Positions 1 through 16,169 of a stretch of DNA of 64,000 nt are shown here, piece after piece. The stretch is from a virus, in the IMG/VR virus record IMGVR_UViG_3300027956_000006; one strand, 5' to 3'. The position numbers and the translations under genes were made by a program. Under the pieces are notes generated by a model. That model was not told the DNA's origin and made no database searches. It was given only the letters and a program-made list of their open reading frames with translations. How positions within the stretch are numbered: the stretch's first letter is position 1; each line of letters begins with the position of its first letter.

Positions 1-486
1 AACTCTTATAATGGGACAAGTGAATTTGGCTTCTTTATACACTTTTTCTAATACATTAAATACTCGATCAGTATCCGAGCCAATAACAATTCGTTTACTA
101 TTTAGAAAATCTTGATTCGCATTTTTATCTGTTAAGAACTCTGGATTAAAAGCGAAATCAAATTTAGGAAATTCTTTTGCTAAACTATTTGTCGTTCCAC
201 TTACAGCTGTCGATCGTATAACTATAATCGTTTTTTCTTCATCATCATATGATGCATATTCATTTAAAATACTAATTGATTCATAAATAGCACTAAGATC
301 TATTTCACCAGACTTCTTCATTGGTGTTGGAACAGTAATAAATATTACAGAACAATTATTAGCAATTTCTTTTAATGTGCCATACTCTTTTTTGTATTTA
401 TCATAATAAAAAAGTTTATGTCCACGCTCTAGCCCTCCGGCAGTAGCAAGCCCTACAACACCACACCCCACGATTCCAATATCCAT
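1..486 (-). CDS. UDP-glucose/GDP-mannose dehydrogenase family protein (partial, runs off window)
   Basis: Own translation from ATG at 486: MDIGIVGCGVVG (GxGxxG), FITVPTP, IRSTAVSGTT, FNPEFL; GGAG RBS upstream. Confidence 0.9.
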   Translation of the reverse strand, partial: MDIGIVGCGVVGLATAGGLERGHKLFYYDKYKKEYGTLKEIANNCSVIFITVPTPMKKSGEIDLSAIYESISILNEYASYDDEEKTIIVIRSTAVSGTTNSLAKEFPKFDFAFNPEFLTDKNANQDFLNSKRIVIGSDTDRVFNVLEKVYKEAKFTCPIIRV

Positions 487-495
487 ATTAATCTC

Positions 496-1488
496 CTATC
501 GCCATATTTCTGGTGTTTTTTCATTCACCAATTCTAATTTATCTTTTGTCCATGGTTGAGGGCCTAATGTTTTAGCCCAAGTCACCATTTCTTGTAAACA
601 TGTTCTTAAATCTTTTGTTTCTTTATACCCTAATTCATGCATCGACTTCTCAAAACTAGAATACGCATTTTTAACTTCACGAGGTCTATCTGGTAAATGT
701 GTAATAATAACCTTATCTTGAACTCCCATTACATCTATTAGCATTTCTGCAGCTTCATTCAATGTAATAGGGTTTATTCCACCAATATTATATGTTTGTC
801 CATTAGTAAAATCTTCAAGACATTTCACATAGCATGGTAACGAAAATTCTATTGGACTAAATGCTCGCTTTTGCATACCATCACCAAAAATATAAATCTC
901 TTTTTCACCATGCATAATTCTATTTATCCAAATAGCAAAAACATTGCGATAACGGTCTGATAAACTTTGTCTAATACCCATTACATTATGTGGCTTAATA
1001 ATAGTGTATTTAAATCCGTGTACTTCTGCTAAAATTTTTGTTGATTCTTCCATTATTGTCTTATTCCAACCATATATATCAGTTGGTCGATTCGGCATAT
1101 CTTCAGTAAATGGTGGCGTTTGTTCTCCGAATGTTGCCATCGACGAAAACATAACCATTTTTTTAAATTTATATTTAATGCATGCGTTTAAAACATTCAT
1201 ATATGCCATAACATTGTCTTCTGTGGATTTTAATGGTTCGAATAATGACCCAATTTCTCTCGCGCTCGCACAAAGATAAAACACAACCTCTGGTTGCCAT
1301 TGTGAAATTAACTTTTCAGTTGCATTTTTATCTTTTAAATCAATAAAAAAACATAAATGATCCAATGTGTTACGCATAAATCCACCACTAAGATTGTCTA
1401 CACCTATAACCGCATGTCCTTGTTTACTTAACTCATCAGCTATCCAAGACCCCATGAATCCAGCAGAACCTGTCACGAGAATTTTCAT
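496..1488 (-). CDS. NAD-dependent epimerase/dehydratase (extended SDR)
   Basis: TGSAGFMG, YGWNK (YxxxK), IFGDGMQKRAF. Confidence 0.92.
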   Translation of the reverse strand: MKILVTGSAGFMGSWIADELSKQGHAVIGVDNLSGGFMRNTLDHLCFFIDLKDKNATEKLISQWQPEVVFYLCASAREIGSLFEPLKSTEDNVMAYMNVLNACIKYKFKKMVMFSSMATFGEQTPPFTEDMPNRPTDIYGWNKTIMEESTKILAEVHGFKYTIIKPHNVMGIRQSLSDRYRNVFAIWINRIMHGEKEIYIFGDGMQKRAFSPIEFSLPCYVKCLEDFTNGQTYNIGGINPITLNEAAEMLIDVMGVQDKVIITHLPDRPREVKNAYSSFEKSMHELGYKETKDLRTCLQEMVTWAKTLGPQPWTKDKLELVNEKTPEIWR

Positions 1489-1500
1489 TTTACCTCCAAA

Positions 1501-2283
1501 TTATGCTTCTTTTATATAAAAATCATTTCCAATTGATTTTAAATATAAATTATTCAATATTTTCATCCATTCAGGATGATAATGTACATTACCTTCAGAT
1601 CCATAACCAAATTTATCATGATTTTCTTTCAAATGGAAAGCACCTTCAGTAAATGTAACTGTTATAAATAAAATACCACCAATTTTTAAATGTTGTACAA
1701 GATATTTAATCACACTTTCAGGGTCTTTCACATGTTCAAGAACTTCGTGTGTAAAGATAATATCAAAGTTATCATTTTCACTTAAAAATGTATGATTATT
1801 ATATGTATATTTAAAATCTATATTTACACCATATTTTTTACAACGATATTCAATAAATTTTATCCAATCTATTGGCATATCAATTACAGTTGTTGCATAC
1901 CCTATGTCATAAAAACAAATTGCATTTGTTAAGTCTCCACACCCATAATCTAATATTTTTTTACCAGGATAACAAAATTCATATATATTTTTCATCCATG
2001 GTCTATCAGATGAGTTTAAATGGTCGTTAGTGTGGTAACTTTTATGTGATAATTCAGCATATCCATATGCATTATAAATAGGATGATTACATATTTTAAT
2101 TAATTCATCGTGTGTATAATTTTTACTACTATCAATTAAATCATCTGTATTATTATTATGTGTTATATGCCAACCATGTCTCATCCCTTTCCAATAAGAT
2201 AAAGGAAATCCACTAAAAGTCAAAACATCTTGTTCAAAAGTTGTTTCTGTAAGGTATTCATTATTCCTTACTGGTATTTTCAT
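1501..2283 (-). CDS. Class I SAM-dependent methyltransferase
   Basis: ILDYGCG motif I, FDIIFTHEVLEHVKDP, LKIGG. Confidence 0.9.
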   Translation of the reverse strand: MKIPVRNNEYLTETTFEQDVLTFSGFPLSYWKGMRHGWHITHNNNTDDLIDSSKNYTHDELIKICNHPIYNAYGYAELSHKSYHTNDHLNSSDRPWMKNIYEFCYPGKKILDYGCGDLTNAICFYDIGYATTVIDMPIDWIKFIEYRCKKYGVNIDFKYTYNNHTFLSENDNFDIIFTHEVLEHVKDPESVIKYLVQHLKIGGILFITVTFTEGAFHLKENHDKFGYGSEGNVHYHPEWMKILNNLYLKSIGNDFYIKEA

Positions 2284-3049
2284 TTTTCTCCTTAATTAAT
2301 TTATAGGGAATAGGGATATCAGCATCTATTTCAAAACAATGTTTACATATCAATGCCGCTTCTTTATTTTTAATATTATTATGAATTTTTTTAATACCTT
2401 TTTTAATTTTATTCACAATATTTATATCAGTAATTTTACCATAAGATATTTCTTGATCTGCTATTCTACAACATGGCACAACGATTCCATCAAAGTAAAT
2501 AAAAAATAATCTATCAATTATGGCACAATCATGTTTCCTTATTATGTTAAGATTATTAATAATACATCTCTGATATCTTACTTTTTTATCATATAAAAGA
2601 TCAGAAAAATATTTAAAATCTTCTGTAGAAAAAATGACCGTTCTAAAATGACAATTTATTCCTATTTGGTTAGCAATAATATATATATTTAATAAATGTG
2701 ATATATATTCCTTTGGCGTGTTTTTATTTAAACTTAAGTCGAGATATGTTAACCCAGCATATTTTAAATTATGTACCATTGGTTCAGTTAATAAAGTACC
2801 ATTTGTAGTAAATCCAATACTAAAATATGGTGCAGCATATTTTATAAATTTTATTAATTCAGGATGTAATAATGGTTCACCCCAATTATGGAGCCAAAGT
2901 TCTTTTAATTTAAGCTTTTTACATAGACTAATCGCTTGTCTAAAAGTTTCAAATGACATATATCCATATCCACGTTTTAGCTTATTTCTAAAACAACCTA
3001 TACACATTAAATTACATTGATTAGTTAATTCTATTTGACAGTATTGCAT
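2261..3049 (-). CDS. Radical SAM protein with SPASM/twitch-like C-terminus
   Basis: CNLMCIGC (CxxxCxxC), WGEPLLHP, TTNG, DGIVVPCC...CKHC. Confidence 0.9.
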   Translation of the reverse strand: MQYCQIELTNQCNLMCIGCFRNKLKRGYGYMSFETFRQAISLCKKLKLKELWLHNWGEPLLHPELIKFIKYAAPYFSIGFTTNGTLLTEPMVHNLKYAGLTYLDLSLNKNTPKEYISHLLNIYIIANQIGINCHFRTVIFSTEDFKYFSDLLYDKKVRYQRCIINNLNIIRKHDCAIIDRLFFIYFDGIVVPCCRIADQEISYGKITDINIVNKIKKGIKKIHNNIKNKEAALICKHCFEIDADIPIPYKLIKEKNENTSKE

Positions 3050-3591
3050 ATTTTTACTAATACTATAATATTATACATGTTATTTTCTAAAGTGTTAAAT
3101 TGTACTATTTTTACATCATGTAATTGTAATACAATATTTTTCCATTCTTCCGCAGTATGTTCATTTGGTGCTTGATATTCAAGCTTTATTTCTTCTTCAT
3201 TATTATGTTGAAATGCTTTAATATCTGGTGCAAAACAAACAAGCATACCACCCTTACGTAATGCTCTAATCCATTCTTGAAAAATAGCTACTGGGTTTCC
3301 TGGTATATGCTCAATAGAAGCTATAGATGTGATGTAGTCTAAGGAATTATCTTGAAATGGCAAACAATTACCATCGCCTACTACTGCATTATGTGCTGGA
3401 GAAGCATGTACATCAAGACCTAAAGAGTACATCTCCGGCCCTCCAGGACCACCAACATCAACACCAAACGCTGCATGTTCTCTATCTCTTGCGCATAATC
3501 CTTTAACAAAATCAAAAAGTAAATCTCTTTGTATATCAGAAACCATATTTCTATTTACAAAATGGTATCGCGCAGGCCCGTCCCACCACAT
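3031..3591 (-). CDS. SAM-dependent methyltransferase (type 11-like)
   Basis: GVDVGG, GDGNCLPFQDNSLDYI, EHI, LRKGG. Confidence 0.85.
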   Translation of the reverse strand: MWWDGPARYHFVNRNMVSDIQRDLLFDFVKGLCARDREHAAFGVDVGGPGGPEMYSLGLDVHASPAHNAVVGDGNCLPFQDNSLDYITSIASIEHIPGNPVAIFQEWIRALRKGGMLVCFAPDIKAFQHNNEEEIKLEYQAPNEHTAEEWKNIVLQLHDVKIVQFNTLENNMYNIIVLVKICNTVK

Positions 3592-4358
3592 ATCTCATCC
3601 TTTCTTATTTGTTTTACTAATTTGTGTTTTATTTTATCATGACACTGTTTACATAATATTTTTCCATTATTAATATCCCAAAAAGGTTGATATGTAATTG
3701 CTAATCTAATTAATATATTTTTATCATCAATTGGTGAAAATTGTGGATATTGTTGTAAAAATTCATTTAATATAATACAAAATTCTTTAATATGATGAGC
3801 TTCTAATGTATTATCATGTTTAAAACATTCTTGACATTCATAATTATCTTTTTTAAATACATTTCTCATCCACTCTCCATATTCAAATGAGTGTCTTATC
3901 ATTAAATGTAATGGCGTCCTACCATCAATCCAAAAATAACATTTTTTACCACGATTATTAACACCTATTTTTTTTCTTATTTCGGGATTTAAAAATGCTT
4001 TTTTAGTACCATCACTAATCTTTTGTCTCATTATAGGACTCGATAATGACTTTTTAACCTTAATCCCTATACTTCTTCTTAATTTAGAATCTTTATATAA
4101 ATTGATTAATATTCTTTTTATTTTTTTTCGAGTTGCTGGAACAGACATAGCTTTTTTTGATCTTACACTCATTAATTGTTTAATTTTAGGATCGTTGCAG
4201 CGTATTTGATTTCTTATTTTATTATTCAATCTAAATTGTGGATCTAAAAATTTATTTTTAATCGCAATACCTATCTTTTCTCTCTCTTTTAATTTAGAGA
4301 AACGTTTTCTTTGGGCTTGAGATCTATTATTAAAAATTATAGTTTTTTTATTATGCAT
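3555..4358 (-). mobile_element. Free-standing HNH homing endonuclease with basic NUMOD3-like repeats
   Basis: DNYECQEC...LEAHHIK...DINNGKILCKQCH; repeated RQKISDGTKKA-like basic helices; WIDGRTP. Confidence 0.85.
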
Positions 4359-4366
4359 ATAATTTT

Positions 4367-4561
4367 TTATACATTATAATTTTGTTTGTATCTTCTCGCA
4401 TATTCAGCTTCATCTGTTAATAATATTGGAACATCGCTTTTAGTAATATTATATATTTTGTTACATCTAACACAAGTTAATGTTCTTGCTTCTTGATTCC
4501 AGCTTAATCTACTTTTACATATCGGACATCCATAAATATTTAATAATTCTTCATTAACCAT
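4367..4561 (-). CDS. Trm112-like zinc-ribbon protein
   Basis: LLNIYGCPICKSRL...LTCVRCNKIYNI...DVPILL pattern. Confidence 0.8.
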   Translation of the reverse strand: MVNEELLNIYGCPICKSRLSWNQEARTLTCVRCNKIYNITKSDVPILLTDEAEYARRYKQNYNV

Positions 4562-4587: not shown

Positions 4588-5415
4588 TTATCTACAATGT
4601 TGACATGTCCAAGACCCTTTATGCATAGCGACAAACATTTCTTCATAAGAAACTTCTTTACCCGCTTTATGTATTGAACATTTATTACAAATTAAAGGAT
4701 AATGTGCTAAACCACGATTTATATAATAACCATATAAAGGCGTAAGGTCTCTAAAAATATTTGGAAAATGGTAAGAAAAAGCACTTTTTACAGTAAAATT
4801 ATTCCCCCCTTGGCACCCTAGTCTATATTTTAATCCATCTTCATGGTGGATATGCATATCATCATTCCATGTAAATGTAGTATATCCTCCTAATTTATTA
4901 AATGTGTCTTTAGCAATTATTTCTGGAAAATGTCCAAATATTTCTTGTATTAAACCTTCTTTTGTATTAATATTACAATATTCATTAAATTCATCCATAT
5001 GAAAATCATCTTGTGTAAGAACACCAATTTTTGATCCTGTTTCAAATCCAAACCCATTTCCAATTTCAAAACCTTGTAAATATGTAGGTGCTAAAATAAC
5101 ATGATGATTTAAATATTTACTCATATTAATATCCCAATCTTTTGATACTAATAAATCATCTTGAAAAAAAGCGAGATATTCTTTAGTGGCTTTTGTTGCC
5201 CCCAAATTCATCAAAGCATACCAATTGCATAAATTGGCTTGATAATACATAATCTCATTATCTTGCAACCATTTATATGTTTGCCAAGATGTATATATAT
5301 CACAAATAATAATATATTCATGCTCTAATTTTGAATGTTTTTTGAGTGTTTCATAACAGAACTTTAATGCGCCCGATGTATATCTAGTAGGAATTATAAC
5401 TGAAAAACCGTCCAT
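4588..5415 (-). CDS. Glycosyltransferase family 2
   Basis: FSVIIPT, NLGATKATKEYLAFFQDD, FNKLGGY. Confidence 0.85.
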   Translation of the reverse strand: MDGFSVIIPTRYTSGALKFCYETLKKHSKLEHEYIIICDIYTSWQTYKWLQDNEIMYYQANLCNWYALMNLGATKATKEYLAFFQDDLLVSKDWDINMSKYLNHHVILAPTYLQGFEIGNGFGFETGSKIGVLTQDDFHMDEFNEYCNINTKEGLIQEIFGHFPEIIAKDTFNKLGGYTTFTWNDDMHIHHEDGLKYRLGCQGGNNFTVKSAFSYHFPNIFRDLTPLYGYYINRGLAHYPLICNKCSIHKAGKEVSYEEMFVAMHKGSWTCQHCR

Positions 5416-5422
5416 AGAAATC

Positions 5423-6367
5423 TTATCTTTCTTTTTCTAAATGTTGTTGTAATAGTTTTATACCAGTATCTAAATTTACTTTAAATTCATATTTATATGG
5501 TATTTCGGGTCTAAACCATGTATCTGCTAATCTAAAAAAATAGTTTTCTTTTGGTGCATTTTCTATATCCCAAGTTATATCTAGATTCTCTATACCACAG
5601 ATCTCTGCTACAAATTGAACTAATGTCTCTATGGTGATTGGATTACAATAACCAAAATCAACTGTCTGATTTTTAAATTCATGATTTGATACCATTAATA
5701 TCCAATCAATTGTATCTTGTACATACATTGCATCTATTAAATTTTGTCCATTACCTATCAATGTTATTGTCTGCTTTTTATCAAAATAAAAATTCTTAAT
5801 TAATTTGGTAGATATTTTATCTGCACGTTGATAAGGCCCATATGCACCAAAAAAACGAACATTTAAGTATTCCTCGACTTCCCCATTTAACCTAAAGTAT
5901 TCTAATAGTAGCTCGCTTGTGCGTTTTGCAATCGCATATGGTGTAAATGGATGTATATTTATTGTATTTGCAGCACTAACTATTCCTGCATTACCTTCAT
6001 AAATACATCCACTTGAAAAATGAATCAATTTACTACATGTATGATATTTAAAAAATCCAATTAATGCCAAGGGATCTGACTTAAAATTTTGTAATGGTAA
6101 CAAAGTACTATCCAACTTGCGCGTATCACCAATAAGTGAAATAACTAAATCAAAATGTTTTGGGACAAGATTTAAATTTTCTGAACATGTATATGTTGCA
6201 AGATCTTGTTGTACAAGGATGGTGCAAGTATTTATTTTATGTGTTTTAAACCATTCTGGGAAATCTTTTGCTGTATTATAAAAAGCAAATACTTCCCAAT
6301 TTTTATTGAGATTTAACATTAAATTACGACCAACAAAGCCAGAGGCACCCAAAATGGCTACACGCAT
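5423..6367 (-). CDS. NAD-dependent epimerase/dehydratase
   Basis: GASGFVG, YAIAK, RFFGAYGP. Confidence 0.9.
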   Translation of the reverse strand: MRVAILGASGFVGRNLMLNLNKNWEVFAFYNTAKDFPEWFKTHKINTCTILVQQDLATYTCSENLNLVPKHFDLVISLIGDTRKLDSTLLPLQNFKSDPLALIGFFKYHTCSKLIHFSSGCIYEGNAGIVSAANTINIHPFTPYAIAKRTSELLLEYFRLNGEVEEYLNVRFFGAYGPYQRADKISTKLIKNFYFDKKQTITLIGNGQNLIDAMYVQDTIDWILMVSNHEFKNQTVDFGYCNPITIETLVQFVAEICGIENLDITWDIENAPKENYFFRLADTWFRPEIPYKYEFKVNLDTGIKLLQQHLEKER

Positions 6368-7314
6368 TTTTCTTTCTCTTTTTTAATTAAAAATCCAATA
6401 CTTTCATCAATAGGTATTAGAGTTGGATATTTTTGATTAATATTTGTTTCAATTCCAACAAGACAATCTATATCACCAGGCCGTTCTTTTTCAAAAATAA
6501 CATTACATTTAAAATCACCTATTTCAGCGATTAATTTTACTAAATCGATAATACGTATAGCTTGTCCTGAACAAATTTGATAAATAATATTTTTATATTT
6601 ATTTTTTACATCAAAATGATAATCTAAGATCATGAACAAACGTGTTAACATATCTTCGACGTAAATAAAATCTCTTTTTTGTTCACCACTACCATTAATA
6701 ATCACTGGCTTATTAGAATTAAACAATCTAATTGTTTTAGGAATAATACCTTGATATTCAAAATTTATTTGTCTATAACCAAAATTATTAAATGGGCGTA
6801 TAATAACAGCGTCTAAATTAAATATATCAATCATTGTTTTAATTAAATTATCAGCAGCATTTTTACCAACAGCATATGGTGTTGTTGGTGATTTTTTATT
6901 ACGATCATCTAATGGAACAATAGATACATTACCATAAACTTCAGATGATGAAAAATGTACATATTTTTTAATTATTTTATTTCTAGATAAAGAGCAGCAT
7001 GTTTGTGCAATTTTTAATTCTTCAACACAACACCATTCAGGCATTACTAATGAATATAATAAACCAGCTGTAGCTAAATTAAACAATGTATCTATATCCT
7101 GATTGATTAAGTTAGCAGTAACTTTATCAATATCTTGTATATCTAAATGAATAAATTTAAAATTTTTATTTTTCATAGCATCTTGTAAATTCTTCATTGA
7201 TCCAGAATAAAGGTTATCAATTACAATAACTCTATCTCCACGCTTAAGCAAAGCATCAACAAGATGACTCCCAATAAAACCAGCACCACCAACAACTACA
7301 TGTTTAAGACTCAT
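6358..7314 (-). CDS. NAD-dependent epimerase/dehydratase (nucleotide-sugar 4,6-dehydratase/epimerase-like)
   Basis: GGAGFIGSH, SSSEVYG, YAVGK, RPFNNFG, RDFIYVED. Confidence 0.92.
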   Translation of the reverse strand: MSLKHVVVGGAGFIGSHLVDALLKRGDRVIVIDNLYSGSMKNLQDAMKNKNFKFIHLDIQDIDKVTANLINQDIDTLFNLATAGLLYSLVMPEWCCVEELKIAQTCCSLSRNKIIKKYVHFSSSEVYGNVSIVPLDDRNKKSPTTPYAVGKNAADNLIKTMIDIFNLDAVIIRPFNNFGYRQINFEYQGIIPKTIRLFNSNKPVIINGSGEQKRDFIYVEDMLTRLFMILDYHFDVKNKYKNIIYQICSGQAIRIIDLVKLIAEIGDFKCNVIFEKERPGDIDCLVGIETNINQKYPTLIPIDESIGFLIKKEKEKCV

Positions 7315-8333: not shown

Positions 8334-9351
8334 AAATTAAAACTGCTGGGCAATCAATATGTCTTATCCAATAAACATTATCTTTAATTGCATTGTATTG
8401 TAACAAATTTGGTAATTTTTCATTATATGCAAGTTTAACATAATAATATGGCATATTAATACCTGCTGTACTAAAAAATAAACTTGTTGTAAAAAATCTT
8501 CCTGCATTAATTTCTGTTGGATAAATAACACCATTACTATCTTCTTTTAAATCAACACAAAAAATACCAGTTGCATTTTTATCTATAGAAGTAATAGCTG
8601 TGGTAGCCACCTTATTAATATCATCTCTTGCTATGGTCCGAGCAACAGCTGGAGTTCCAGTAATTCTTGATGGAGCTAGATATGGATAAATATATTCTAG
8701 ACGTTCACGTGCTTGTGATACAATTAATTTACCTTTATTCCATAAAGATTGAAAAGCAAAATCTTTACCATTTAAAAATTTTTGTGCTATAAATACCCAA
8801 TCAACATCTCTTGCTTTCCAATATCCAAACCAATGGATAGCCATATCCAAACTTTCTACTTTAGTACTACCACGACCTCCTGCGCCAGAAGAAGCACGCA
8901 TCCAATATGGATACCCTAAAATTTTACCGACCCTTCGTATATCAATAATATTTTTAATAGTATAAGACTTAACAGAATGTATTCCATTTTTTTCCCAAAT
9001 GTTAGCACTAATAAATTTATTTTGACAAATATCAATTGTTTTTTTATTAGGTAATAACATCATGGCATTAATTTTTTTACGATTTTCAGATAAAGTACGC
9101 ACTTCAATATCAGGTTGAGCATGAATAAATTCTATCTTTTCTTTTTTGATAATATCATTAAGAAATTTAATGTAATTAGGGTGTGTCGCTTCATAGGGAG
9201 CTACATATGCTTTATCTAAATCTGGCCATTCTAAATGCCATTTATTCATATCTGTACCAACTAAATACATTGGTTCATCAACTAAACGTAAAGAATTAAT
9301 AAAATTAACTGCTGGCGCCCCACCAGCACCCGTAATTAATATCCGTTTCAT
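8287..9351 (-). CDS. ATP-grasp protein (carbamoyl-phosphate-synthase-like, glycan-cluster type)
   Basis: ILITGAGG, GAGGRGS loop, QKFLNG, TEINAGRF. Confidence 0.85.
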   Translation of the reverse strand: MKRILITGAGGAPAVNFINSLRLVDEPMYLVGTDMNKWHLEWPDLDKAYVAPYEATHPNYIKFLNDIIKKEKIEFIHAQPDIEVRTLSENRKKINAMMLLPNKKTIDICQNKFISANIWEKNGIHSVKSYTIKNIIDIRRVGKILGYPYWMRASSGAGGRGSTKVESLDMAIHWFGYWKARDVDWVFIAQKFLNGKDFAFQSLWNKGKLIVSQARERLEYIYPYLAPSRITGTPAVARTIARDDINKVATTAITSIDKNATGIFCVDLKEDSNGVIYPTEINAGRFFTTSLFFSTAGINMPYYYVKLAYNEKLPNLLQYNAIKDNVYWIRHIDCPAVLIYDEKFKADESYCKKV

Positions 9352-9380: not shown

Positions 9381-10328
9381 TCAATCTTCATTACTAATGC
9401 GCATAAAATCAATTTTTTCTTGAGCAGTGTTCATATCGTACATATCTTGTATAGTAAAATCTTTCCATTCTTTTTCCATATCCTCATTAGGCATTCGGAT
9501 ATCTTTATATACTAAATTTCCTTGCCAATCCCCCTTCGCCATTGCAACAGGATTAATAAAACCTTCTTTAATATTTTTAAAAATATATTTTCCCGTATCA
9601 CCATTTTTAGCGTATTTAATTTGTTTAAAAAATAATTGTATCATAAAACGTCTAAAATTTTTACGATAAAATAAACCAGGATATACAAAAGAATGATTAC
9701 CTCTCCAATAACCTTTTTGATCTTCTGCTTCAGGGAAAGTTACTACTAATTCACCATTTTCTTTTAAAACTCTTTTAATTTCCATACATGCATGCATAGG
9801 ATCACTTAAGTGTTCTACTGTTTCTGTAAAAAAAACAATATCAAAAACATTATCGGGAAAGGGGAATCTATCACGCGAAACATCCATATATAATAATGTA
9901 CAATATTCATACCTTTTTTCATCATAATATAATTTCTGTGCCGCTAAACCAGCGTCAAGTCCTATAATTTTATTACCAAATCTTGATAAATATACCATTA
10001 AATCACCCCGCCCAGCGCCAACATCTAAAATTATTTTATTAGAAGGGGTTTTATAAAAGCCATCAGTAATAATAGTTGCTTGCATACCAATACCTGCCTG
10101 GTCAAAATTTTCCCAATAAGGATCATATGTATATTTTAGTCTTGGTACCCAATACTTACGTAATTCACCATATAATTCACCATGTTCATTTTCAAATCCC
10201 CAACGTTCAAATTCATTGTGCCATGGATATTCTGGTAAATTTCTACATTTAGCTATTTCAGATTTAGATAATGTTGTTAATGTATCATCTTTGTTTTCAT
10301 TTTTATCCATTTTACCCCCTAATATCAA
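9381..10328 (-). CDS. Class I SAM-dependent methyltransferase
   Basis: ILDVGAGRG, FPFPDNVFDIV, EHL, RVLKENG. Confidence 0.9.
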   Translation of the reverse strand: MILGGKMDKNENKDDTLTTLSKSEIAKCRNLPEYPWHNEFERWGFENEHGELYGELRKYWVPRLKYTYDPYWENFDQAGIGMQATIITDGFYKTPSNKIILDVGAGRGDLMVYLSRFGNKIIGLDAGLAAQKLYYDEKRYEYCTLLYMDVSRDRFPFPDNVFDIVFFTETVEHLSDPMHACMEIKRVLKENGELVVTFPEAEDQKGYWRGNHSFVYPGLFYRKNFRRFMIQLFFKQIKYAKNGDTGKYIFKNIKEGFINPVAMAKGDWQGNLVYKDIRMPNEDMEKEWKDFTIQDMYDMNTAQEKIDFMRISNED

Positions 10329-11305
10329 AATTTAAAATCAGTTTTAATAATCTCAGCTTTTTTTAACATCATATGGGCTCTATCAAGATATGTATGTTTA
10401 GAACGCACTTCTATAAAAGCATTACGTCTTATACGCTCAACAAGGTCTTTGTTTCTTCTACAAAGCATAATTTTATCATACAAGTCATTTACATTTAGTG
10501 CGGTTCGCCCATCATCTAATTTATCTGTTTTAACAGATAAGTAATGAACACCTTCAGTAAATAATTGTTCCATTAAAAAGAATTTATCGCTTAACACAAT
10601 ACACCCCATAGACATCGCTTCAAAAACACGCCATTTAATATATTCTTGACCATTAGAGCATGCATAAGTAGTTAAAGACTTATTATGTATAATAGCATAT
10701 TCATCAATTCCTACATTACCAAATTTAATACGTAACCCCTTATCTTGCAACGCATTACATATACGAGGTCTTGGGTCATACATCATTGCTAATAAAGCGA
10801 AATCAAATTCCCTCTCATAATCAAATAATGGATGTATAGCGGGTAAACAAGCACCAGGTAACCATGTAAAACCTTGATATATTGCTTTTCTTGGTTCTGC
10901 ATGAACTCCAAATGGTTGCCCTGTAAAAGCTGCGGTTGGTTTAAACTCTTCGATACGTTTTAAATTAGCTTCCCACCCCTCATGTTCAATTAATAAAAAA
11001 GGTATTCTGTTTTCTGTTTTTTCTATTTTAAAATCCCACCAATCATTTAATATTAATACATCAGGAGTAAAACCATTTTTCACTGCAGTATCTACAACAT
11101 TAGTTAAATCAATTGGGTCATGTTTAGGAACATCCATAATAACTTTTGGTAAATCTTTTTCTTGCCATGTTATCCCATAATGATTTGTAACAACAGTACC
11201 AGCCAATTTAACATTACATCCAATATATCTGAATCCTTCAGCCAACCACCTTTGTATATTAGCTGGATACCATTCAGCTAAAAATAAAATATTTAATTTT
11301 TTCAT
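10325..11305 (-). CDS. Glycosyltransferase, CgeB/Glyco_trans_1_2-like
   Basis: RVFEAMSMGCIVLSD, FTEGVHY, HTYLDRA. Confidence 0.85.
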   Translation of the reverse strand: MKKLNILFLAEWYPANIQRWLAEGFRYIGCNVKLAGTVVTNHYGITWQEKDLPKVIMDVPKHDPIDLTNVVDTAVKNGFTPDVLILNDWWDFKIEKTENRIPFLLIEHEGWEANLKRIEEFKPTAAFTGQPFGVHAEPRKAIYQGFTWLPGACLPAIHPLFDYEREFDFALLAMMYDPRPRICNALQDKGLRIKFGNVGIDEYAIIHNKSLTTYACSNGQEYIKWRVFEAMSMGCIVLSDKFFLMEQLFTEGVHYLSVKTDKLDDGRTALNVNDLYDKIMLCRRNKDLVERIRRNAFIEVRSKHTYLDRAHMMLKKAEIIKTDFKF

Positions 11306-12324
11306 ATTTTATCCCTAATAATATCAATAAAATATGCTGCTTGTGCAAAATTAGTATGGTATTTGAAAGTATGCTGTCTACATGCTTCTGCTATTTGTTT
11401 ACGTTCTTGTTCATGTGATAAATAATAATCTATTTTTTCACGTAAATCATAAATATCATTAAAATAAACACAATGCACTTTATCAATATATGGATTAGGA
11501 ATTATAATCCCTGGATCTTTAATTAACATTAATGTCTCAAAAGATGCTGCTTCCCAATACCGTACTGTATCTCTACCATGTCCACGGACAATTATATTTA
11601 TTTTAGCTGATGCCATAGTTTTTAAGTAATCAATATACCCCTTTAATGGAGGAATATGGAATCTCTTTTCATCTTGCCATGGTAATGCACCAGTATCAAT
11701 TCCAATATATGAATTGTTTAAATTCTGCTCTAAAAGAAACTTGATCACTCTTTCACGCAACGGATGTGTATTACCAAATAAAGCAAAAACATCAAGTGTT
11801 TTATCTAGCTTGCATAAATCCTCATAAATATCTAAATGTGGAACACATGCAGAAAATGGTAATGGATAAATATTATCAATTTGACGTATCAATTCACGTT
11901 TAAATATAAATTGTGGTTTATATTCTTCTATAATATCGGTACAGATATTATCACCATCTTCAAAATCACAAAATGCTAATGGTTTAGGTGATTTACCGCC
12001 ATATAATTTCTTAATAAATTCCATTGCGTGTAACGGATAATGACGTGGCGATGTTAGAACTATCAAATCTATATGTTGCATTTCTTCTACTATTTCTTCA
12101 AATGGATATAAACGTATTTTACGTGATTTAACATATGCAGCTGGTGCTGTCATACCTCTTTTATTTTCGTTATGCAACATATACGACATATCCATAAATC
12201 CCATATAACTTAATTTAAATGGGTATAATATAATATTATCTTCACCTAATAATTCACACAGACCATTATATAAGAAATATTCACCATAATCTTGCTCTGG
12301 ATTCAAAAGAAATAAAATTTTCAT
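11302..12324 (-). CDS. Glycosyltransferase, CgeB/Glyco_trans_1_2-like
   Basis: GRDTVRYWEA, DLREKIDYYLSHEQERKQIA, HT. Confidence 0.85.
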   Translation of the reverse strand: MKILFLLNPEQDYGEYFLYNGLCELLGEDNIILYPFKLSYMGFMDMSYMLHNENKRGMTAPAAYVKSRKIRLYPFEEIVEEMQHIDLIVLTSPRHYPLHAMEFIKKLYGGKSPKPLAFCDFEDGDNICTDIIEEYKPQFIFKRELIRQIDNIYPLPFSACVPHLDIYEDLCKLDKTLDVFALFGNTHPLRERVIKFLLEQNLNNSYIGIDTGALPWQDEKRFHIPPLKGYIDYLKTMASAKINIIVRGHGRDTVRYWEAASFETLMLIKDPGIIIPNPYIDKVHCVYFNDIYDLREKIDYYLSHEQERKQIAEACRQHTFKYHTNFAQAAYFIDIIRDKI

Positions 12325-12935
12325 ATTCGTCTCCCTACATAATTTAAAGAAAAAAAGTTATGCAAATCATTAAAAACTTCTGTTTTTATAAGATCGGTAT
12401 TTAATTTAATTATATTTTGTTCAAAATCTTCTGGTGTATAAAAATTCTTATGTGTAGGGTCCCATTTACCTTTTTCATATCTAGCATCGGGCATTAATAA
12501 TATCATAATACCATCCTTACACAATAACTTACACCATTGTCTAAAAACTATAATTGGATTACAAACATGTTCCAAAATATGGCTCATTACAATAAAAGAA
12601 AATGTGTTTTTGTTAAATAATTTATAACTTTGTTCAGCTAAACCTGTTATTTGTGGTGAATATCTACCACCATATATAGGGTGTTGTTCACCACAATAAT
12701 CATTTACACCAATACAAGCTAAATGAGGGTCCTGTCCACACCCAATATCTAACCCAACACCATAATGTTCACGTAATTGTTTTAAAATCCAATATAAAAT
12801 AAACGCTTCTTGCTGCATACCAACAAGATTGTCTATCAAAGAAAAATCAAGTCTGTGCGGTTGCTTGCAATTAAAATATTCAAAATTTGGAAAAAATTCT
12901 AATAGATCATCTCTGACATGTATATCAAGATTCAT
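12321..12935 (-). CDS. SAM-dependent methyltransferase
   Basis: GLDIGCG, SHILEH, MPD, DPTH. Confidence 0.88.
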   Translation of the reverse strand: MNLDIHVRDDLLEFFPNFEYFNCKQPHRLDFSLIDNLVGMQQEAFILYWILKQLREHYGVGLDIGCGQDPHLACIGVNDYCGEQHPIYGGRYSPQITGLAEQSYKLFNKNTFSFIVMSHILEHVCNPIIVFRQWCKLLCKDGIMILLMPDARYEKGKWDPTHKNFYTPEDFEQNIIKLNTDLIKTEVFNDLHNFFSLNYVGRRI

Positions 12936-12938
12936 ATT

Positions 12939-13871
12939 TTATATCTCACAAATACATTCTTTTAAATTTTTATCTAGATATTTCATCTGAAGCTTAGGTA
13001 ATATATCAACTAATCTATGATGCACCTCAACTTGTGGAATATCGTAATAATCTTTACATCCCCACTTTTTTGCAAAATAAACTCGTGAATAATCCATACG
13101 ATATACTTTACCTGGTATTGGTTCTATTCTAGACATATCATATTTCTTGCTCATAATTTCACGATATTCTTCCATTGAACAAATTTTATCATCCGGGGAC
13201 ATAATATTTAATTCAAAATTATTAGCAAATGTTTGTGAACCCCAATGCTCAATTGGTGGATAAGGAAGCATCACTGAATAATATCCTAATTTAGCAATCT
13301 GAAATCCATAATCAGTTTCCTCGTAAAAACTCTTAATATTTTCATCAAACCCACCAATTTCATCAAAAATTTTACGTTTAAAAGCAAAACAACATCCAAC
13401 AACCGCTCCTACGCGGCCAGGTAAAGTATCATAATTAGGTAAACTATAATTTTTATTTGGTAGACCAGATAAAGGATCTATTTGTATTAATGGATACCCA
13501 ACTGCGGCAACTTTTTCATTATTTTGTAATGCATAAACTATACATTTCAACCAATTATCATTACAAATACATATATCATCATTAAATAAAATAGATATAT
13601 CAGTATCGAAATGTCTCGTTAAATCATTCCATGATTTAGGAATACCACAATTATTTGTATGTTGAATAAAATCAACTTTAAAGCGTTTTGCTAATTCTTC
13701 TACACCCAAACGCATTTCTTGATTAGGTGTGCCATCATCTAAAATAACTGTTCGATATGAATAATTAAAGTCTTGATGAAAATATAATGAGGTTAATAGT
13801 CTTTCTAATCTTACTGTAGAATTATATGTAGGTGCACCAATTCCAATCTTAATATTATTCTCCATTTTCAT
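12939..13871 (-). CDS. Glycosyltransferase family 2
   Basis: APTYN, ILDDGT, FNDD, IGGFDE, EETD. Confidence 0.9.
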   Translation of the reverse strand: MKMENNIKIGIGAPTYNSTVRLERLLTSLYFHQDFNYSYRTVILDDGTPNQEMRLGVEELAKRFKVDFIQHTNNCGIPKSWNDLTRHFDTDISILFNDDICICNDNWLKCIVYALQNNEKVAAVGYPLIQIDPLSGLPNKNYSLPNYDTLPGRVGAVVGCCFAFKRKIFDEIGGFDENIKSFYEETDYGFQIAKLGYYSVMLPYPPIEHWGSQTFANNFELNIMSPDDKICSMEEYREIMSKKYDMSRIEPIPGKVYRMDYSRVYFAKKWGCKDYYDIPQVEVHHRLVDILPKLQMKYLDKNLKECICEI

Positions 13872-13874
13872 CCT

Positions 13875-16169
13875 TTATTTTGCATACAAATCTAAATGTT
13901 TTTGAGCTATTTTACCCCAATTATTTAATTCTATATATCGATTTGCTGCAGTAACTAATGTATGTTGTAGAGAAACATCACCAAATACCTTAAGAATTGT
14001 TTTTGCTATTACTTCTGGATTTATAGAATTAAACTTTAAAACTTCATTATTTAAATCTAAAAATGCTAATGAATCATTAACAATAATCGGGCGTTGTGTT
14101 CTAAATAATGTTTTCACAGCTGCAGAAATACCACCACCAGTCGGAGCATCATGATAATTTAAAACAAATAAATCAGCACATTGTAAAACAGCAAGCAATT
14201 TATCCTCTGGTAAATATTCTCTAATTAATAAAACATTATTTTGTAGATCATGTCTTTCAATAAAATTGAAGAATGATGCATCATATGCTTGGCTACCAAA
14301 TTCATGTTTAGGGCAAATTAATAACGCTAAAACATCATTATACTGCTCTTTTAATAATTTAACCGCTAATAAATAATCATGAAAACCTTTTTGATCTCTT
14401 AAAAAACCAAATGATCCAATAATTGGTGTATTATGGCTTATATTAAGATTCTTTTTAGTTAGATCTACATTCTCCTGTTTTAAAATTGCTAAATCACTTA
14501 CTCCCATAGCAATAACATCTATATCGCAAATATTAGGTAAAAACCCTTTTGTTTCAGAAGAACGTTCTACTAATTTATCTTTAAATTGTTGACAATGTAC
14601 AATTAAATTATCAGCGCGTGATAATAATAACTCATTATATGAAGATAATCCTGGGACTAAACTATGTAAAGTAATAACAACTTTAACATTTAAAGTATGT
14701 AGTTGATCTAATAAAATTCTTAATTGTTCTTTATCTTTAAAAAATGAAAATTCATGTTGTATATGAATTACATTATAATTACCTTCTTTTATTATTTTAG
14801 GTAATTCTTGATACTCATATGATGAGTATACTACAACATGTTGCCCTAATTTACGTATTGCATCAAATAGATATTTTGTATATTCTGCAATACCACAATG
14901 AGTTCCCCAACTAGGTATGACAATTAAAGGATTAATTTCTTTAATTTTAACATGTTCTTTAATAAAATTAAAGTTCTTTTTTGTCATTACTTTATTTATC
15001 CTTTGCATTAAAGCAGAACTTGTCTCATCCCAAGTTAATTGATCTGTGAATTTTTGCGATTTTGTACTAATTTCTTTCCGTAAAGTATGCTGATTCTTGA
15101 AATCATTGTATAAAACATTTAATTTCTCTACTAAATCACTCTGCGATGCTATCGCTCTTTTAATACCATTAAATCCATATAGATATCCTGATGTTTTTAA
15201 TAAAAACCCGCCACCTTGATTAATTAATTCTGTTGTAGCGGCATAATCAGTAGTTAAAACAGGTGTTCCAACAGCCATAGCTTCTAAGGTAGGCAATGAT
15301 AAACCTTCACCTATGCTTGTATTAACACTTGCAGAAGCCAAATTATATATTAAATTCAGTTGTTGATCTGACATTCCTTTTAAAGGGCCCGCTTCTTTAG
15401 TAATAGCAACTTTTTTTCTTAAATCAAAATATTTTACAAAATCCCATAAATCAAAACCAAAAGGATCTGCTGGATCAGTTACAAGTAATAAAAATACATC
15501 ATCTTTATCAATAGCAAAATCTTTAAAAGCCTCTATCGTTAAAGGTATATTTTTTCTATCAGTATTTTGATTAATATTTAGTACTAAAAATGTATCTTTT
15601 AAATTAAATGGAAGTGTATTCTCTTTTATAATTGGAGCTGAAGGGAAAAAAATAGTTTTATCAACTCCTGGATAAATAACATTTGTTTGAATATCGGCAT
15701 ACTTATATATTTCCTGTTTTGCAAAGTATGAAAATACATTAATATCATCTGCTGAATTTAATATAGAATGCCAACTAGGGTGTAAATGCTCCCCATCAAC
15801 AGTAAGCCATAAAACCCATTTAGTATTTGGAAAAGATTCCTTATGTACATTTATAACATGTTGTATATGTTCAAAATTCCAAAGATCTCCTATAGAAAGA
15901 ATTATATCAGGCTGTGCATCAGCTAAAATATGAGAGAATTGTTCCGCTTCTTTACTAGAAGATTTTTCTAAAGGGTATAAAAAATAAGGTAAATCGTGTT
16001 TAGTATTACGATAATGCCATGCAGCATATACTACATCATATATTTTTATATTATTATTCGTTTTGGCATCAAATGTAGTATATTCAACTAAACGTTTTGC
16101 TATTTCCTTACCACAACGAGCTAATCCTGAATATAACAATGGCGAGTCAGTGTGTAGCAGTATTTTCAT
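13875..16169 (-). CDS. Tandem two-domain GT-B (family 4-like) glycosyltransferase
   Basis: Domain 1: RKN, EGLSLPTLEAMAVGTP; domain 2: CGIAEY, IQHEF, FGFLRDQKG. Confidence 0.9.
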   Translation of the reverse strand: MKILLHTDSPLLYSGLARCGKEIAKRLVEYTTFDAKTNNNIKIYDVVYAAWHYRNTKHDLPYFLYPLEKSSSKEAEQFSHILADAQPDIILSIGDLWNFEHIQHVINVHKESFPNTKWVLWLTVDGEHLHPSWHSILNSADDINVFSYFAKQEIYKYADIQTNVIYPGVDKTIFFPSAPIIKENTLPFNLKDTFLVLNINQNTDRKNIPLTIEAFKDFAIDKDDVFLLLVTDPADPFGFDLWDFVKYFDLRKKVAITKEAGPLKGMSDQQLNLIYNLASASVNTSIGEGLSLPTLEAMAVGTPVLTTDYAATTELINQGGGFLLKTSGYLYGFNGIKRAIASQSDLVEKLNVLYNDFKNQHTLRKEISTKSQKFTDQLTWDETSSALMQRINKVMTKKNFNFIKEHVKIKEINPLIVIPSWGTHCGIAEYTKYLFDAIRKLGQHVVVYSSYEYQELPKIIKEGNYNVIHIQHEFSFFKDKEQLRILLDQLHTLNVKVVITLHSLVPGLSSYNELLLSRADNLIVHCQQFKDKLVERSSETKGFLPNICDIDVIAMGVSDLAILKQENVDLTKKNLNISHNTPIIGSFGFLRDQKGFHDYLLAVKLLKEQYNDVLALLICPKHEFGSQAYDASFFNFIERHDLQNNVLLIREYLPEDKLLAVLQCADLFVLNYHDAPTGGGISAAVKTLFRTQRPIIVNDSLAFLDLNNEVLKFNSINPEVIAKTILKVFGDVSLQHTLVTAANRYIELNNWGKIAQKHLDLYAK

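Follow-up and report, generated by a model that had tools for sequence, protein, structure and literature searches.

The window analysed here is a stretch of 64,000 nucleotides from an uncultured phage of ~175 kb (IMG/VR record IMGVR_UViG_3300027956_000006), in which positions 1–16169 hold the part of a sugar-gene island that we analysed. The ORF list and Pfam searches documented 19 closely packed, co-oriented ORFs in this part, all on the minus strand, with neighbouring genes spaced by −47 to +29 nt. The island follows the major capsid gene and a small conserved gene, here called small125; features are given in gene order, capsid-proximal first:

16696..17715, minus strand: major capsid protein of 339 aa that anchors the island upstream (phrog_3990 major head protein, E 3.6e-38)
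16610..16642, minus strand: 15-bp stem-loop with U-rich tail, between the capsid stop codon and the next gene (terminator scan)
16210..16587, minus strand: small125, conserved 125-aa protein, between capsid and tandem GT4 genes (9/9 relatives)
13875..16169, minus strand: tandem GT4 glycosyltransferase, 764 aa (two separate Pfam Glycos_transf_1 matches and one to Glyco_transf_4)
12939..13871, minus strand: GT2 glycosyltransferase, 310 aa (PF00535, E 6e-12)
12321..12935, minus strand: class I SAM methyltransferase, 204 aa (PF13489, E 2e-9)
11302..12324, minus strand: CgeB-like glycosyltransferase, 340 aa (PF13524, Glyco_trans_1_2, E 1.4e-15)
10325..11305, minus strand: second CgeB-like glycosyltransferase, 326 aa (PF13524, E 1.3e-10)
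9381..10328, minus strand: class I SAM methyltransferase, 315 aa (PF08241, E 2.8e-16)
8287..9351, minus strand: ATP-grasp ligase, 354 aa (PylC-like_N and CPSase_L_D2, both weak)
7833..8333, minus strand: HAD phosphatase, 166 aa (PF13419, E 1.4e-20)
7304..7852, minus strand: Methyltransf_24 methyltransferase, 182 aa (PF13578, E 1.5e-16)
6358..7314, minus strand: extended SDR, NDP-sugar epimerase/dehydratase family, 318 aa (PF01370, E 5e-46)
5423..6367, minus strand: extended SDR, 314 aa (PF01370, E 8.5e-26)
4588..5415, minus strand: GT2-like glycosyltransferase, 275 aa (PF00535, E 1.8e-5)
4367..4561, minus strand: Trm112-like zinc-ribbon ORF, 64 aa (PF03966, E 1.4e-6)
3555..4358, minus strand: HNH homing endonuclease, 267 aa (phrog_5956 HNH endonuclease, PHROG E 4e-10; no Pfam match)
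3031..3591, minus strand: class I SAM methyltransferase, 186 aa (PF08241, E 1.5e-9)
2261..3049, minus strand: radical SAM/SPASM enzyme, 262 aa (PF04055, E 1.2e-12; SPASM weak)
1501..2283, minus strand: class I SAM methyltransferase, 260 aa (PF13489, E 4.5e-13)
496..1488, minus strand: core SDR, GalE-like, 330 aa (PF01370, E 1.7e-40)
1..486, minus strand: nucleotide-sugar (UDP-glucose-type) 6-dehydrogenase, N-terminal 162 aa, cut by the window edge (PF03721, E 1e-20; TIGR03026, E 3e-26)

The tally of five glycosyltransferase genes with six domains, five SAM methyltransferases and three SDRs is the one reached by an earlier sequence-only reading, and the Pfam families agree with its enzyme assignments (ATP-grasp, HAD, radical SAM/SPASM and the truncated dehydrogenase among them); its gene list lacked the Trm112-like ORF and the HNH endonuclease. 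No island enzyme reached an NCBIfam equivalog cut-off, so ‘epimerase’ is a family label here and the activity only predicted. The top NCBIfam match of the core SDR was GalE (109 bits), those of the SDR at 6358..7314 were dTDP-glucose 4,6-dehydratase and a LegB-like family, and the ATP-grasp protein matched PRK12767 ‘carbamoyl phosphate synthase-like’ (E 1e-24), all under cut-off. This last protein, for which no homologs were found among GenBank phages, may, if Cj1438C is a guide (PMC11800379), be an amide ligase whose substrate is a uronic acid. The Methyltransf_24 protein, weakly matching rhamnosyl O-methyltransferase/CmcI (E 2.4e-4), is a likely sugar O-methyltransferase; the ‘complex methylated glycan’ suggested earlier draws on generic class I methyltransferase matches, one in five of which (7304–7852) carries this weak sugar-specific match. 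No NCBIfam equivalog was found for the radical SAM/SPASM enzyme, nor any similarity between the Trm112-like ORF and a long methyltransferase in a relative, G001. The ORF at 3555–4358, without orthologs found in the relatives, is by its HNH match a selfish insert, not a pathway enzyme.

The tandem GT4 protein, with ~50 metagenomic relatives, was modelled by AF2 as two GT-B modules (pLDDT 88), of which the N-half retains E288-x7-E296 while the C-half has GGGISAAVK at that place. A fold search returned generic GT4 matches only, the top PDB match being the chlorovirus NY-2A glycosyltransferase B736L (3oy2; 19% identity, generic GT4 similarity). Among the other glycosyltransferases, the GT2 at 12939..13871 has orthologs in all relatives examined except L033, and the first CgeB-like protein has orthologs at 40–70% identity in most relatives and zero homologs among 50,697 GenBank phage records. 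The second CgeB-like protein has an ortholog in G002 (69% identity), the methyltransferase at 12321..12935 one in G001 (62%) and the GT2-like protein, whose Pfam match is weak (25.2 bits; cut-off 23.3), one in G001 (45%).

The small gene beside the capsid gene had been read from a TTG at 16644; because this longer frame crosses the 15-bp terminator-like hairpin (16642–16610), we place its start at the ATG at 16587, giving 125 aa. A strong hairpin occupies the same site, with differing sequences, in 8/8 relatives (z −3.1 to −7.4), and is likely an attenuating terminator or a 3′ stabiliser. Pfam and PHROG searches with small125 gave no match, a fold search with its AF2 model (pLDDT 84) gave no informative one and viral hypotheticals were the sole returns from Atlas.

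Related phages keep the cluster beside the capsid gene: the order capsid, small125, tandem GT4, variable sugar genes is kept in all nine full-length IMG/VR relatives, with connector and tape-measure genes downstream in every relative whose contig extends there. In L032 and L033 the island stops at connector-like ORFs, and in G001 at small ORFs, behind which comes a tape measure protein; phage structural genes flank it on either side in G001, G003 and L033. Wherever both ends are visible, it lies between the capsid and head-tail connector genes. Its length ranges from 4.3 kb (tandem GT4 and one SDR) through 10 kb and 27 kb to >31 kb, and its content from 2 to >25 genes. The conserved core consists of the tandem GT4 and the GalE-like SDR (orthologs at 67% in L032, 57% in G001, 53% in G002, 49–50% in L033, where an intein interrupts the gene, and 40% in L029/L030); beyond this core, the donor-sugar, further glycosyltransferase and tailoring genes are highly variable. 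In L029/L030 and L032, too, a nucleotide-sugar dehydrogenase comes next after the core SDR. The G002 island carries TPP-dependent transketolase-like pairs, two B12 radical SAM enzymes, a DegT aminotransferase, a GHMP kinase and a nucleotidyltransferase. Homing endonucleases, TnpB and an intein occur among these islands, indicating that the region tolerates inserts. Across the relatives, identity runs from 62% to 39% for the tandem GT4 alongside 80% to 53% for the capsid protein (eight relatives), and this parallel divergence points to a long vertical association. In composition the island matches the head module (GC 28.8% against 29.9%, GC3 15.4% against 15.8%, tetranucleotide r 0.98).

The phage most likely coats its particle with a variable glycan of its own. 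We put at somewhat better than even the fuller reading, in which the island serves late, cytoplasmic glycosylation of virion proteins and the acceptor is a candidate; this reading gains support from the fixed position, the matching composition, the co-divergence of GT4 and capsid protein, the soluble proteins, the hairpin, the Ser-rich proteins and the head-region GT4 homologs of cultured phages described below, and precedent. On this model, the stem-loop 3′ of the capsid gene would pass part of late transcription into the enzyme genes, and the dehydrogenase and three SDRs would turn host UDP-/NDP-sugars into uronic, epimerised or deoxy donors. In the cytoplasm, before the head assembles or as it does so, the tandem GT4 would then begin a glycan on a virion protein, at Ser/Thr. 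Elongation would fall to the GT2 and CgeB-like enzymes and O-methylation to the five SAM methyltransferases, while the ATP-grasp and HAD pair may amidate a uronic acid. If so, turnover of island content would give every lineage its own surface glycan. The glycan itself is a prediction from gene content, and its acceptor, sugar and linkage are candidates.

The sequence-only reading had the phage making its own donor sugars and building a methylated glycan late in infection, most simply on the capsid. It is supported in that the cluster is the phage's own, sits within the late head operon and encodes donor enzymes, glycosyltransferases and methyltransferases; the capsid as acceptor is one candidate. 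Beyond a modest conserved tail at the C-terminus, neither the capsid protein nor small125 has an obvious acceptor tract rich in Ser/Thr. Judged by the relatives, giant Ser-rich fibre-like proteins, which close the island in two of them, are at least as strong a candidate. In G001 this is a 1002-aa protein, ~600 aa of which are SPS-type repeats; L054 encodes, behind four methyltransferases, a homolog of its N-domain with ~570 aa of poly-Ser. A poly-Ser and discoidin protein lies in the head module of L033 and an 856-aa tail-fibre-like protein at the island terminus of L032, while from L029 to L032 no Ser-rich proteins were seen within 10 kb of GT4. The likeliest acceptor is a giant Ser-rich fibre or decoration protein at the downstream island end, the capsid protein, or both, although poly-Ser can serve as a mere flexible linker. 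Against the virion reading as a whole, a place in a late operon may also mark a hot spot for accessory genes.

Remodelling of the host envelope is an unlikely reading but one with precedent: the enzymes would build or alter host surface polysaccharide on host lipid carriers, masking receptors and so blocking superinfection or sparing progeny from loss on cell debris. O-antigen and capsule loci typically hold such sets of GT2, GT4, SDR and dehydrogenase genes, and peripheral glycosyltransferases need no membrane helix. Transmembrane segments are what one would expect of a priming phosphoglycosyl transferase, a flippase, a polymerase, an ABC exporter or a protein of the Gtr type, but there is none in 48 island proteins from two genomes, nor more widely in the 21 proteins here (capsid, small125 and 19 island ORFs) and 29 from G001; hydrophobicity peaks >1.6 were confined to Rossmann glycine loops and one segment of the radical SAM protein (1.61). 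Soluble glycosyltransferases act on lipid-linked acceptors too, so host carriers may be used even in the absence of membrane helices. Against this reading also stand the joint inheritance of the core GT4 with the capsid gene and the head-operon site in 9/9 relatives, which implies late expression in a cell near lysis. In its favour, jumbo cyanophages carry large polymorphic sugar clusters that Iyer et al. interpret in this way (PMC7824862), and S-SCSM2R, with 13 glycosyltransferases, was interpreted alike (PMC12801897).

Distinctly less probable is a cytoplasmic glycoconjugate unconnected with the virion, such as a polymethylated oligosaccharide or glycosylated small molecule with a metabolic, protective or anti-defence role. 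Every enzyme is soluble, the combination of GT4 with several O-methyltransferases resembles cytoplasmic methylmannose polysaccharide synthesis and the G002 enzyme set is typical for secondary-metabolite sugars; the mannosyltransferase of that synthesis, 7qsg, also appears among sequence and fold matches of the GT4, but as generic GT4 similarity at fold rank 28. No aglycone-forming genes were seen, and such a product leaves the fixed site behind the capsid gene across such divergence unexplained.

Very improbable, in our view, is sugar hypermodification of DNA, by which the glycosyltransferases would act on hydroxymethylated phage bases before packaging and so evade restriction. To our knowledge, no DNA glycan on record approaches the complexity implied by at least five glycosyltransferases with methyltransferases and an ATP-grasp enzyme. 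The site beside packaging and head genes fits post-replicative modification, but the defining partner genes are missing: Pfam revealed no thymidylate-synthase-like hydroxymethylase, 5mYOX/TET or C5 DNA methylase in the island, the hydroxymethylase and C5 methylase were not found in the 135-kb relative G001, nor the C5 methylase in G003, and a TET search of G001 gave no match, its control also matching nowhere. Phage GT-A and GT-B enzymes akin to LPS and teichoic acid glycosyltransferases do hypermodify 5hmC, sometimes with di- or trisaccharides and from clusters near structural genes, yet the same work rates glycosyltransferase contigs without such partner genes as less likely to act on DNA (Pyle et al., 10.1101/2023.12.21.572611). 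Both this and envelope remodelling, the alternatives raised earlier, are weakened by the lack of membrane or export parts, hydroxymethylase and C5 DNA methylase.

That the block comes from adjoining host chromosome, or from a chimeric assembly with its join near 16.2 kb, has only the bacterial look of its enzyme families behind it and is refuted for practical purposes by the capsid–small125–tandem GT4 junction in nine independent contigs from different samples, structural genes on both sides in three relatives, operon-like spacing, and composition and codon use identical to those of the head module, so that the cluster belongs to the phage.

Returning to virion glycosylation, a working analogy for the tandem GT4 is GtfA/GtfB, two partner enzymes of GT4 type. 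The catalytic signature is missing from one of their GT-B modules, and their genes lie beside that of a huge Ser-rich repeat adhesin. The island may share both the signature-less module and a nearby Ser-rich protein gene, but its modules are fused, the accessory Sec system is absent and no GtfA/GtfB chains were among the Foldseek matches listed for it.

In cultured phages, homologs of the GT4 N-half lie within or beside the packaging and head genes. The gene order in Microcystis phage Mae-JY09 (PP395641) is capsid, a small hypothetical, GT4, a hypothetical, SDR-like, another hypothetical and head-tail adaptor, the layout of the minimal island of L033; Synechococcus phage S-CBS4 (NC_016766) has portal, hypothetical, glycosyltransferase, GalT, methyltransferase and HNH genes, then protease and capsid; and TJE1 has sugar genes directly before its terminase genes. 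Unlike the island, the siphophages Mae-JY09 and S-CBS4 have a single-domain GT4 (26–28% identity) and capsid and small proteins without detectable homology to those here; we found their head-region sugar genes annotated but not discussed in the literature.

Jumbo cyanomyophages such as P-SSM2, with 15 genes for sugar production and modification (Iyer et al. 2021, PMC7824862), share large polymorphic clusters of predicted function with paralogous NAD-dependent epimerase/dehydratases, several glycosyltransferase families, HAD phosphatases and O-methyltransferases. However, these are T4-like myophages whose clusters are read as modifying host polysaccharide (PMC7824862, PMC12801897), and these sources neither place them behind the capsid gene nor describe a conserved tandem GT4, whereas the island has its fixed place between the capsid gene and the connector genes.

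Megavirinae devote clade-specific clusters of 6–33 genes to fibril glycans (Notaro et al. 2022, PMC10117803), against 2 to >25 in the islands. They and the chloroviruses likewise combine nucleotide-sugar pathways and glycosyltransferases in a single cluster of clade-specific content, and a fibrous capsid layer is the target proposed for Megavirinae and, putatively, here; these are giant viruses of eukaryotes, with unrelated capsids and fibril proteins.

The mycobacteriophages offer direct precedent, since their own glycosyltransferases glycosylate capsid and tail tube (Freeman et al. 2023, Cell Host Microbe 31:1216, as relayed in PMC12619734 and PMC11256854). On these summary accounts, Che8, Rita and others resemble the island in using soluble phage-encoded enzymes, presumably in the cytoplasm, on their own structural proteins, and actinophage capsid proteins are distant relatives (26% identity) of the one here. 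They carry few glycosyltransferases, placed near the genome 3′ end in F1 phages as PMC11256854 outlines, whereas the island, known here from genes alone and from a low-GC host, sits immediately behind the capsid gene, counts no fewer than 19 genes in the window, exceeds 31 kb in one relative, and adds nucleotide-sugar enzymes of its own together with five methyltransferases, a radical SAM enzyme and an ATP-grasp.

Every gene from window position 1 to ~50 kb lies on the minus strand, and the sugar genes form an island of at least 16.2 kb that starts behind the capsid gene and runs past the window edge. The features anchoring the island, in order of transcription, are:

18152-19771 (-), head protease/scaffold gene, just upstream of the capsid gene
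16696-17715 (-), capsid gene, matching the major head protein family phrog_3990 (E 3.6e-38)
16610-16642 (-), strong stem-loop right after the capsid stop codon
16210-16587 (-), small ORF encoding a conserved protein, small125
13875-16169 (-), tandem GT4 glycosyltransferase (GT) gene, first of the island ORFs
496-1488 (-), core SDR (epimerase/dehydratase-type) gene

On the 3′ side of the capsid gene, the small ORF is followed by 19 co-oriented island ORFs up to the window edge, with intergenic distances of −47 to +29 nt. According to Pfam searches, these encode, from the capsid side, the tandem GT4 (764 aa), a GT2, a SAM methyltransferase and two CgeB-like Glyco_trans_1_2 proteins; a methyltransferase, an ATP-grasp enzyme, a HAD phosphatase, a Methyltransf_24 protein and two SDRs; a weak GT2, a Trm112-like 64-aa ORF and an ORF without a Pfam match; and finally a methyltransferase, a radical SAM/SPASM enzyme, a methyltransferase, an SDR and a nucleotide-sugar dehydrogenase, cut by the edge after its first 162 aa. 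A reading made from the sequence alone had counted five GT genes with six domains, five methyltransferases, three SDRs, a dehydrogenase, an ATP-grasp, a HAD and a radical SAM protein; Pfam bears out this tally, and we add to it an HNH homing endonuclease (3555-4358, no Pfam match) that the sequence-only reading had missed. Within window 3031-4561, the HNH gene sits between the Trm112-like ORF and a short methyltransferase gene. The idea that these two neighbours are one gene split by the endonuclease found no support, as the 64-aa ORF could not be aligned with the long methyltransferase of a relative, G001.

The island is phage DNA. Its GC content (28.8%) and GC3 (15.4%) are close to those of the head module (29.9% and 15.8%) and the tetranucleotide correlation between the two is 0.98. 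Relatives were sought in IMG/VR, yielding seven loci by capsid protein search and nine full-length loci by a tandem GT4 profile. A 40-mer searched for exactly had no match in IMG/VR, and in the one metagenome scanned, relatives reached at most 78% identity. Whether related phages keep the cluster beside the capsid gene had been left to comparison by the sequence-only reading: they do so in all nine full-length loci, where capsid gene, small125, tandem GT4 and variable sugar genes follow one another in that order. Loci that extend far enough upstream show terminase, portal, a variable slot, protease and a pre-capsid protein ahead of the capsid gene. At the other end, connector-like ORFs close the island in two loci (L032 and L033), while seven small ORFs and a tape measure protein close that of G001. 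Composition and synteny together exclude, for practical purposes, the scenario of flanking host DNA or a chimera at 16.2 kb.

The variable portal-protease slot (window 19786-22389 (-)) encodes an 867-aa AAA-type protein here; those of L028 and L029 measure 1814 and 462 aa, respectively, L031 and L032 have small unrelated ORFs alone, and L033 has a poly-Ser protein with a discoidin domain. The terminase-like ORF (window 25217-28036 (-)) is 939 aa long, with a LAGLIDADG homing-endonuclease match at residues 317-410; its homologs in L029 and L033 measure 531-540 aa and the one in L031 766 aa, and this spread, together with the LAGLIDADG match, suggests an intein or endonuclease insertion.

Translation of the small ORF is taken from the ATG at 16587 (125 aa); a longer TTG frame crosses the 15-bp terminator-like hairpin at 16642-16610. 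Searches of Pfam, PHROGs and the ESM Atlas, and Foldseek comparison of an AF2 model with PDB and BFVD, returned nothing informative on the function of small125, and it shows no similarity to the small protein behind the capsid gene of the cultured siphophage Mae-JY09 (PP395641). The stem-loop of the window recurs at the equivalent spot in L001, L004, L028, L029, L031, L032 and L033; it is kept, with differing sequences, in 8 of 8 relatives compared, and a U-tract accompanies only some copies. It may attenuate transcription or stabilise the 3′ end of the capsid mRNA, and its presence fits island enzymes being read through below the level of the late capsid transcript.

The tandem GT4 has ~50 full-length metagenomic relatives (38-72% identical), one of them on a 175,110-bp contig on which the window's own protein is found. 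Its AlphaFold model (pLDDT 88) consists of two GT-B modules, residues 1-395 and 414-764. Among solved structures, the chlorovirus NY-2A glycosyltransferase B736L matches it best in sequence as well as in fold, the rest being generic GT4 enzymes; sequence searches of PDB returned B736L and 7qsg only. The N-half retains the E-x7-E signature of GT4 enzymes, with E288 and E296 invariant in 24 sequences. The C-half is equally conserved and keeps the GT-B fold and the R-x-x-K donor-binding motif, with GGGISAAVK in place of E-x7-E; it is a non-canonical transferase or else a binding module. A reading of the enzyme as GtfA/GtfB-like, as in O-glycosylation of serine-rich repeats, gained no specific fold or sequence support: GtfA and GtfB were absent among the Foldseek PDB matches listed, which were generic GT4 enzymes instead. 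Only two distant relatives bear names, both CPR labels (Candidatus Gottesmanbacteria and Candidatus Dojkabacteria) on short or partial records; they give a faint hint of host or origin, one that is not usable for host assignment.

Around a conserved core of small125, tandem GT4 and core SDR, the island varies widely in size and content. In L033, whose capsid protein is 62% identical, a 4.3-kb island holds the tandem GT4 and an SDR orthologous to that at window 496-1488. The ~10-kb (10.3-kb) island of relative G003 (locus L032) carries the tandem GT4 (GT4x2), a GT2, a CgeB-like gene, a methyltransferase, the core SDR, a dehydrogenase and a GDP-mannose-dehydratase-like gene, followed by a gene for an 856-aa tail-fibre-like protein. 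G001 (135.5 kb, capsid 79% identical) has an island of ~27 kb with nine GT genes (GT17 included), six methyltransferases, UDP-galactopyranose mutase, GDP-mannose 4,6-dehydratase, radical SAM, ATP-grasp and a TnpB insert. The island of another relative, G002 (locus L051, G002:C1:20449-40448), exceeds 31 kb and runs off its contig, adding TPP-dependent transketolase-like subunit pairs, two B12-binding radical SAM enzymes, further radical SAM/SPASM enzymes, a DegT aminotransferase, a GHMP kinase and a nucleotidyltransferase; pathways to branched, C-methylated amino or deoxy sugars typically show this predicted chemistry. In the window, tandem GT4 and core SDR stand 12 kb apart, and insertions between the two have therefore enlarged the island.

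The islands often harbour selfish elements: an HNH gene in the window, TnpB in G001, two HNH genes in G002, an intein in L033 and, in the cultured Synechococcus siphophage S-CBS4 (NC_016766), HNH in its GT-containing block. The TnpB/Cas12f-like gene lies at L011:4366-5511, within the island of G001, the closest long relative. The core SDR of L033 (L033:12239-14320, equivalent to L006:13756-15837) is 693 aa long, compared with 330 aa in the window; its halves align to both ends of the window protein and there is a weak intein-splicing match, so this sugar enzyme has probably been invaded by an intein.

None of the island enzymes reached an NCBIfam equivalog cut-off, and for that reason no specific sugar can be named. 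The dehydrogenase would be expected to supply a UDP-uronic acid; the core SDR, which adjoins it in the window, L029/L030 and L032, is GalE-like and thus a possible 4-epimerase. The SDR at 6358-7314 resembles 4,6-dehydratases in NCBIfam, and one methyltransferase matches the rhamnosyl O-methyltransferase family weakly. The ATP-grasp and HAD phosphatase genes overlap in the window. The Campylobacter capsule enzymes Cj1438C and Cj1435 amidate glucuronate with an amino-alcohol phosphate and afterwards take the phosphate off (PMC11800379); the phage pair recalls this chemistry, a parallel we offer only as a suggestion. Homology of the phage ATP-grasp to the TupA-like domain is conjectural, and in G001 the ATP-grasp occurs with no HAD beside it.

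We consider late glycosylation of virion proteins the best explanation of the island, and hold this putative role, with its acceptors known only as candidates, to be somewhat likelier true than false. The sequence-only reading had proposed a complex methylated glycan, built most simply on the capsid. That proposal is partly supported: phage ownership and the fixed place behind the capsid gene, kept over capsid divergence down to 53% identity, stand; the capsid as acceptor is reduced to one candidate among several.

Other candidates are serine-rich proteins. At the end of its island, G001 encodes a 1002-aa protein in which a 400-aa N-domain is followed by SPS-type repeats over ~600 aa and an end where RLKSATEQT is duplicated; in L054, a homolog of this N-domain with ~570 aa of poly-Ser comes immediately behind four methyltransferases; and L033 encodes its poly-Ser and discoidin protein in the portal-protease slot. 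The N-domain (L012:7745-8944 in G001) falls within a very large family without annotation (1894 matches at E ≤ 1e-3), whose members (P0067-P0216 among them) are mostly ~400 aa long, share the motif FLDTAVYPV and in some cases extend into C-terminal arrays of ~18-residue TE-rich repeats, discoidin domains or poly-Ser. For this family, neither a PDB structure nor a member from a cultured phage turned up. In L029 to L032, no Ser-rich protein was seen within 10 kb, and the capsid protein therefore stays an equal candidate. It has a variable Ser/Thr/Ala-rich loop and, in all eight relatives, a conserved Thr-rich C-terminal tail (QLTTG.Y.NP.ITTNV) bearing no acceptor mark; in mycobacteriophage virion glycosylation, the acceptor region is summarised as the C-terminus of the structural subunit (PMC12619734). 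The SPS-repeat and poly-Ser proteins of G001, L054 and L033 and the capsid protein are candidate fibre and capsid acceptors. More speculatively, and rather doubtfully, the phages might wear a 'glycocalyx', a giant mucin-like Ser-rich head fibre whose dense O-glycans would come from a hypervariable glycan factory encoded by the phage itself, one that can exceed 31 kb and command amino-, deoxy-, branched- and C-methyl-sugar chemistry; this would be a counterpart of the Mimivirus fibril, with cassette turnover under diversifying selection.

Remodelling of the host envelope is an unlikely alternative, albeit the strongest of those considered. A dehydrogenase, three SDRs and five GTs are what a surface-polysaccharide locus would contain, and the soluble GTs of the island could in principle use host carriers. 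However, none of the island proteins scanned for hydropathy, 19 from the window and 29 from G001, has a transmembrane segment, and the islands searched (window and G001) hold no Pfam family for a flippase, polymerase, exporter, priming phosphoglycosyl transferase or Gtr protein (GtrA/B/C); with these membrane parts missing, a self-contained surface-polysaccharide pathway is disfavoured. A cytoplasmic glycoconjugate that never joins the virion is less probable still. Sugar hypermodification of DNA we judge quite improbable: clusters for it are defined by an adjacent thymidylate-synthase-like hydroxymethylase or 5mYOX/TET enzyme, frequently accompanied by a C5 methylase (Pyle et al., 10.1101/2023.12.21.572611), but Pfam found none of the three in the window island. 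Nor was there any match to PF00303, PF12851 or PF00145 in G001 (135 kb), although the TET control matched in no control genome, or to PF00145 in G003, the relatives searched being 60-77% complete. That the block is an artefact or foreign to the phage has a negligible probability, and a small share of the probability goes to none of these readings.

If the virion-glycosylation reading is true, tailed phages of an unrelated low-GC host spend 10-18% of a 175-kb genome on a tailored surface glycan of their own, with a gene set that varies from lineage to lineage as in giant viruses. Phage particles in many environments would then not be bare protein, with effects on their adsorption, decay and grazing, on immune recognition and on the prediction of host range. 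In addition, the islands offer sugar-tailoring enzymes that are as yet unexplored.

To our knowledge, only a few mycobacteriophages, with two to four transferases, have been shown to glycosylate their virions by enzymes of their own. Phage GTs there glycosylate capsid and tail tube, with few GTs and no sugar pathway (Freeman 2023, as described in PMC12619734 and PMC11256854); the phage-encoded GTs of this Che8-type trait are present here too (five genes, six domains, with two GT-B modules modelled). Jumbo cyanomyophages carry sugar clusters of ~15 genes, read as modifying host polysaccharide (PMC7824862; PMC12801897), and the fibril glycans of Megavirinae depend on clade-specific clusters of 6-33 genes (PMC10117803). 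Clustered sugar pathways and GTs with clade-specific content, as in Megavirinae and chloroviruses, recur here in islands of 4.3, 10.3, 27 and >31 kb with differing genes. No homolog of either the CgeB-like GT or the ATP-grasp came from 50,697 GenBank phage records, and our literature search yielded no description of this lineage or of an island this large beside a capsid gene, nor a paper on the GT genes in the head region of Mae-JY09 or S-CBS4. The head module of S-CBS4 holds GT, GalT, MT and HNH genes. In Mae-JY09, the order capsid, hypothetical, GT4, hypothetical, SDR-like, hypothetical, adaptor is a small version of the island layout, and this minimal GT4 and SDR module, at the equivalent position in a cultured Microcystis phage, offers a test bed. 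Set against these systems, what is special here is the scale, an island that stretches from 4 to >31 kb among phages of a single lineage, a core built on a fused tandem GT4, and the association with giant Ser-rich proteins.
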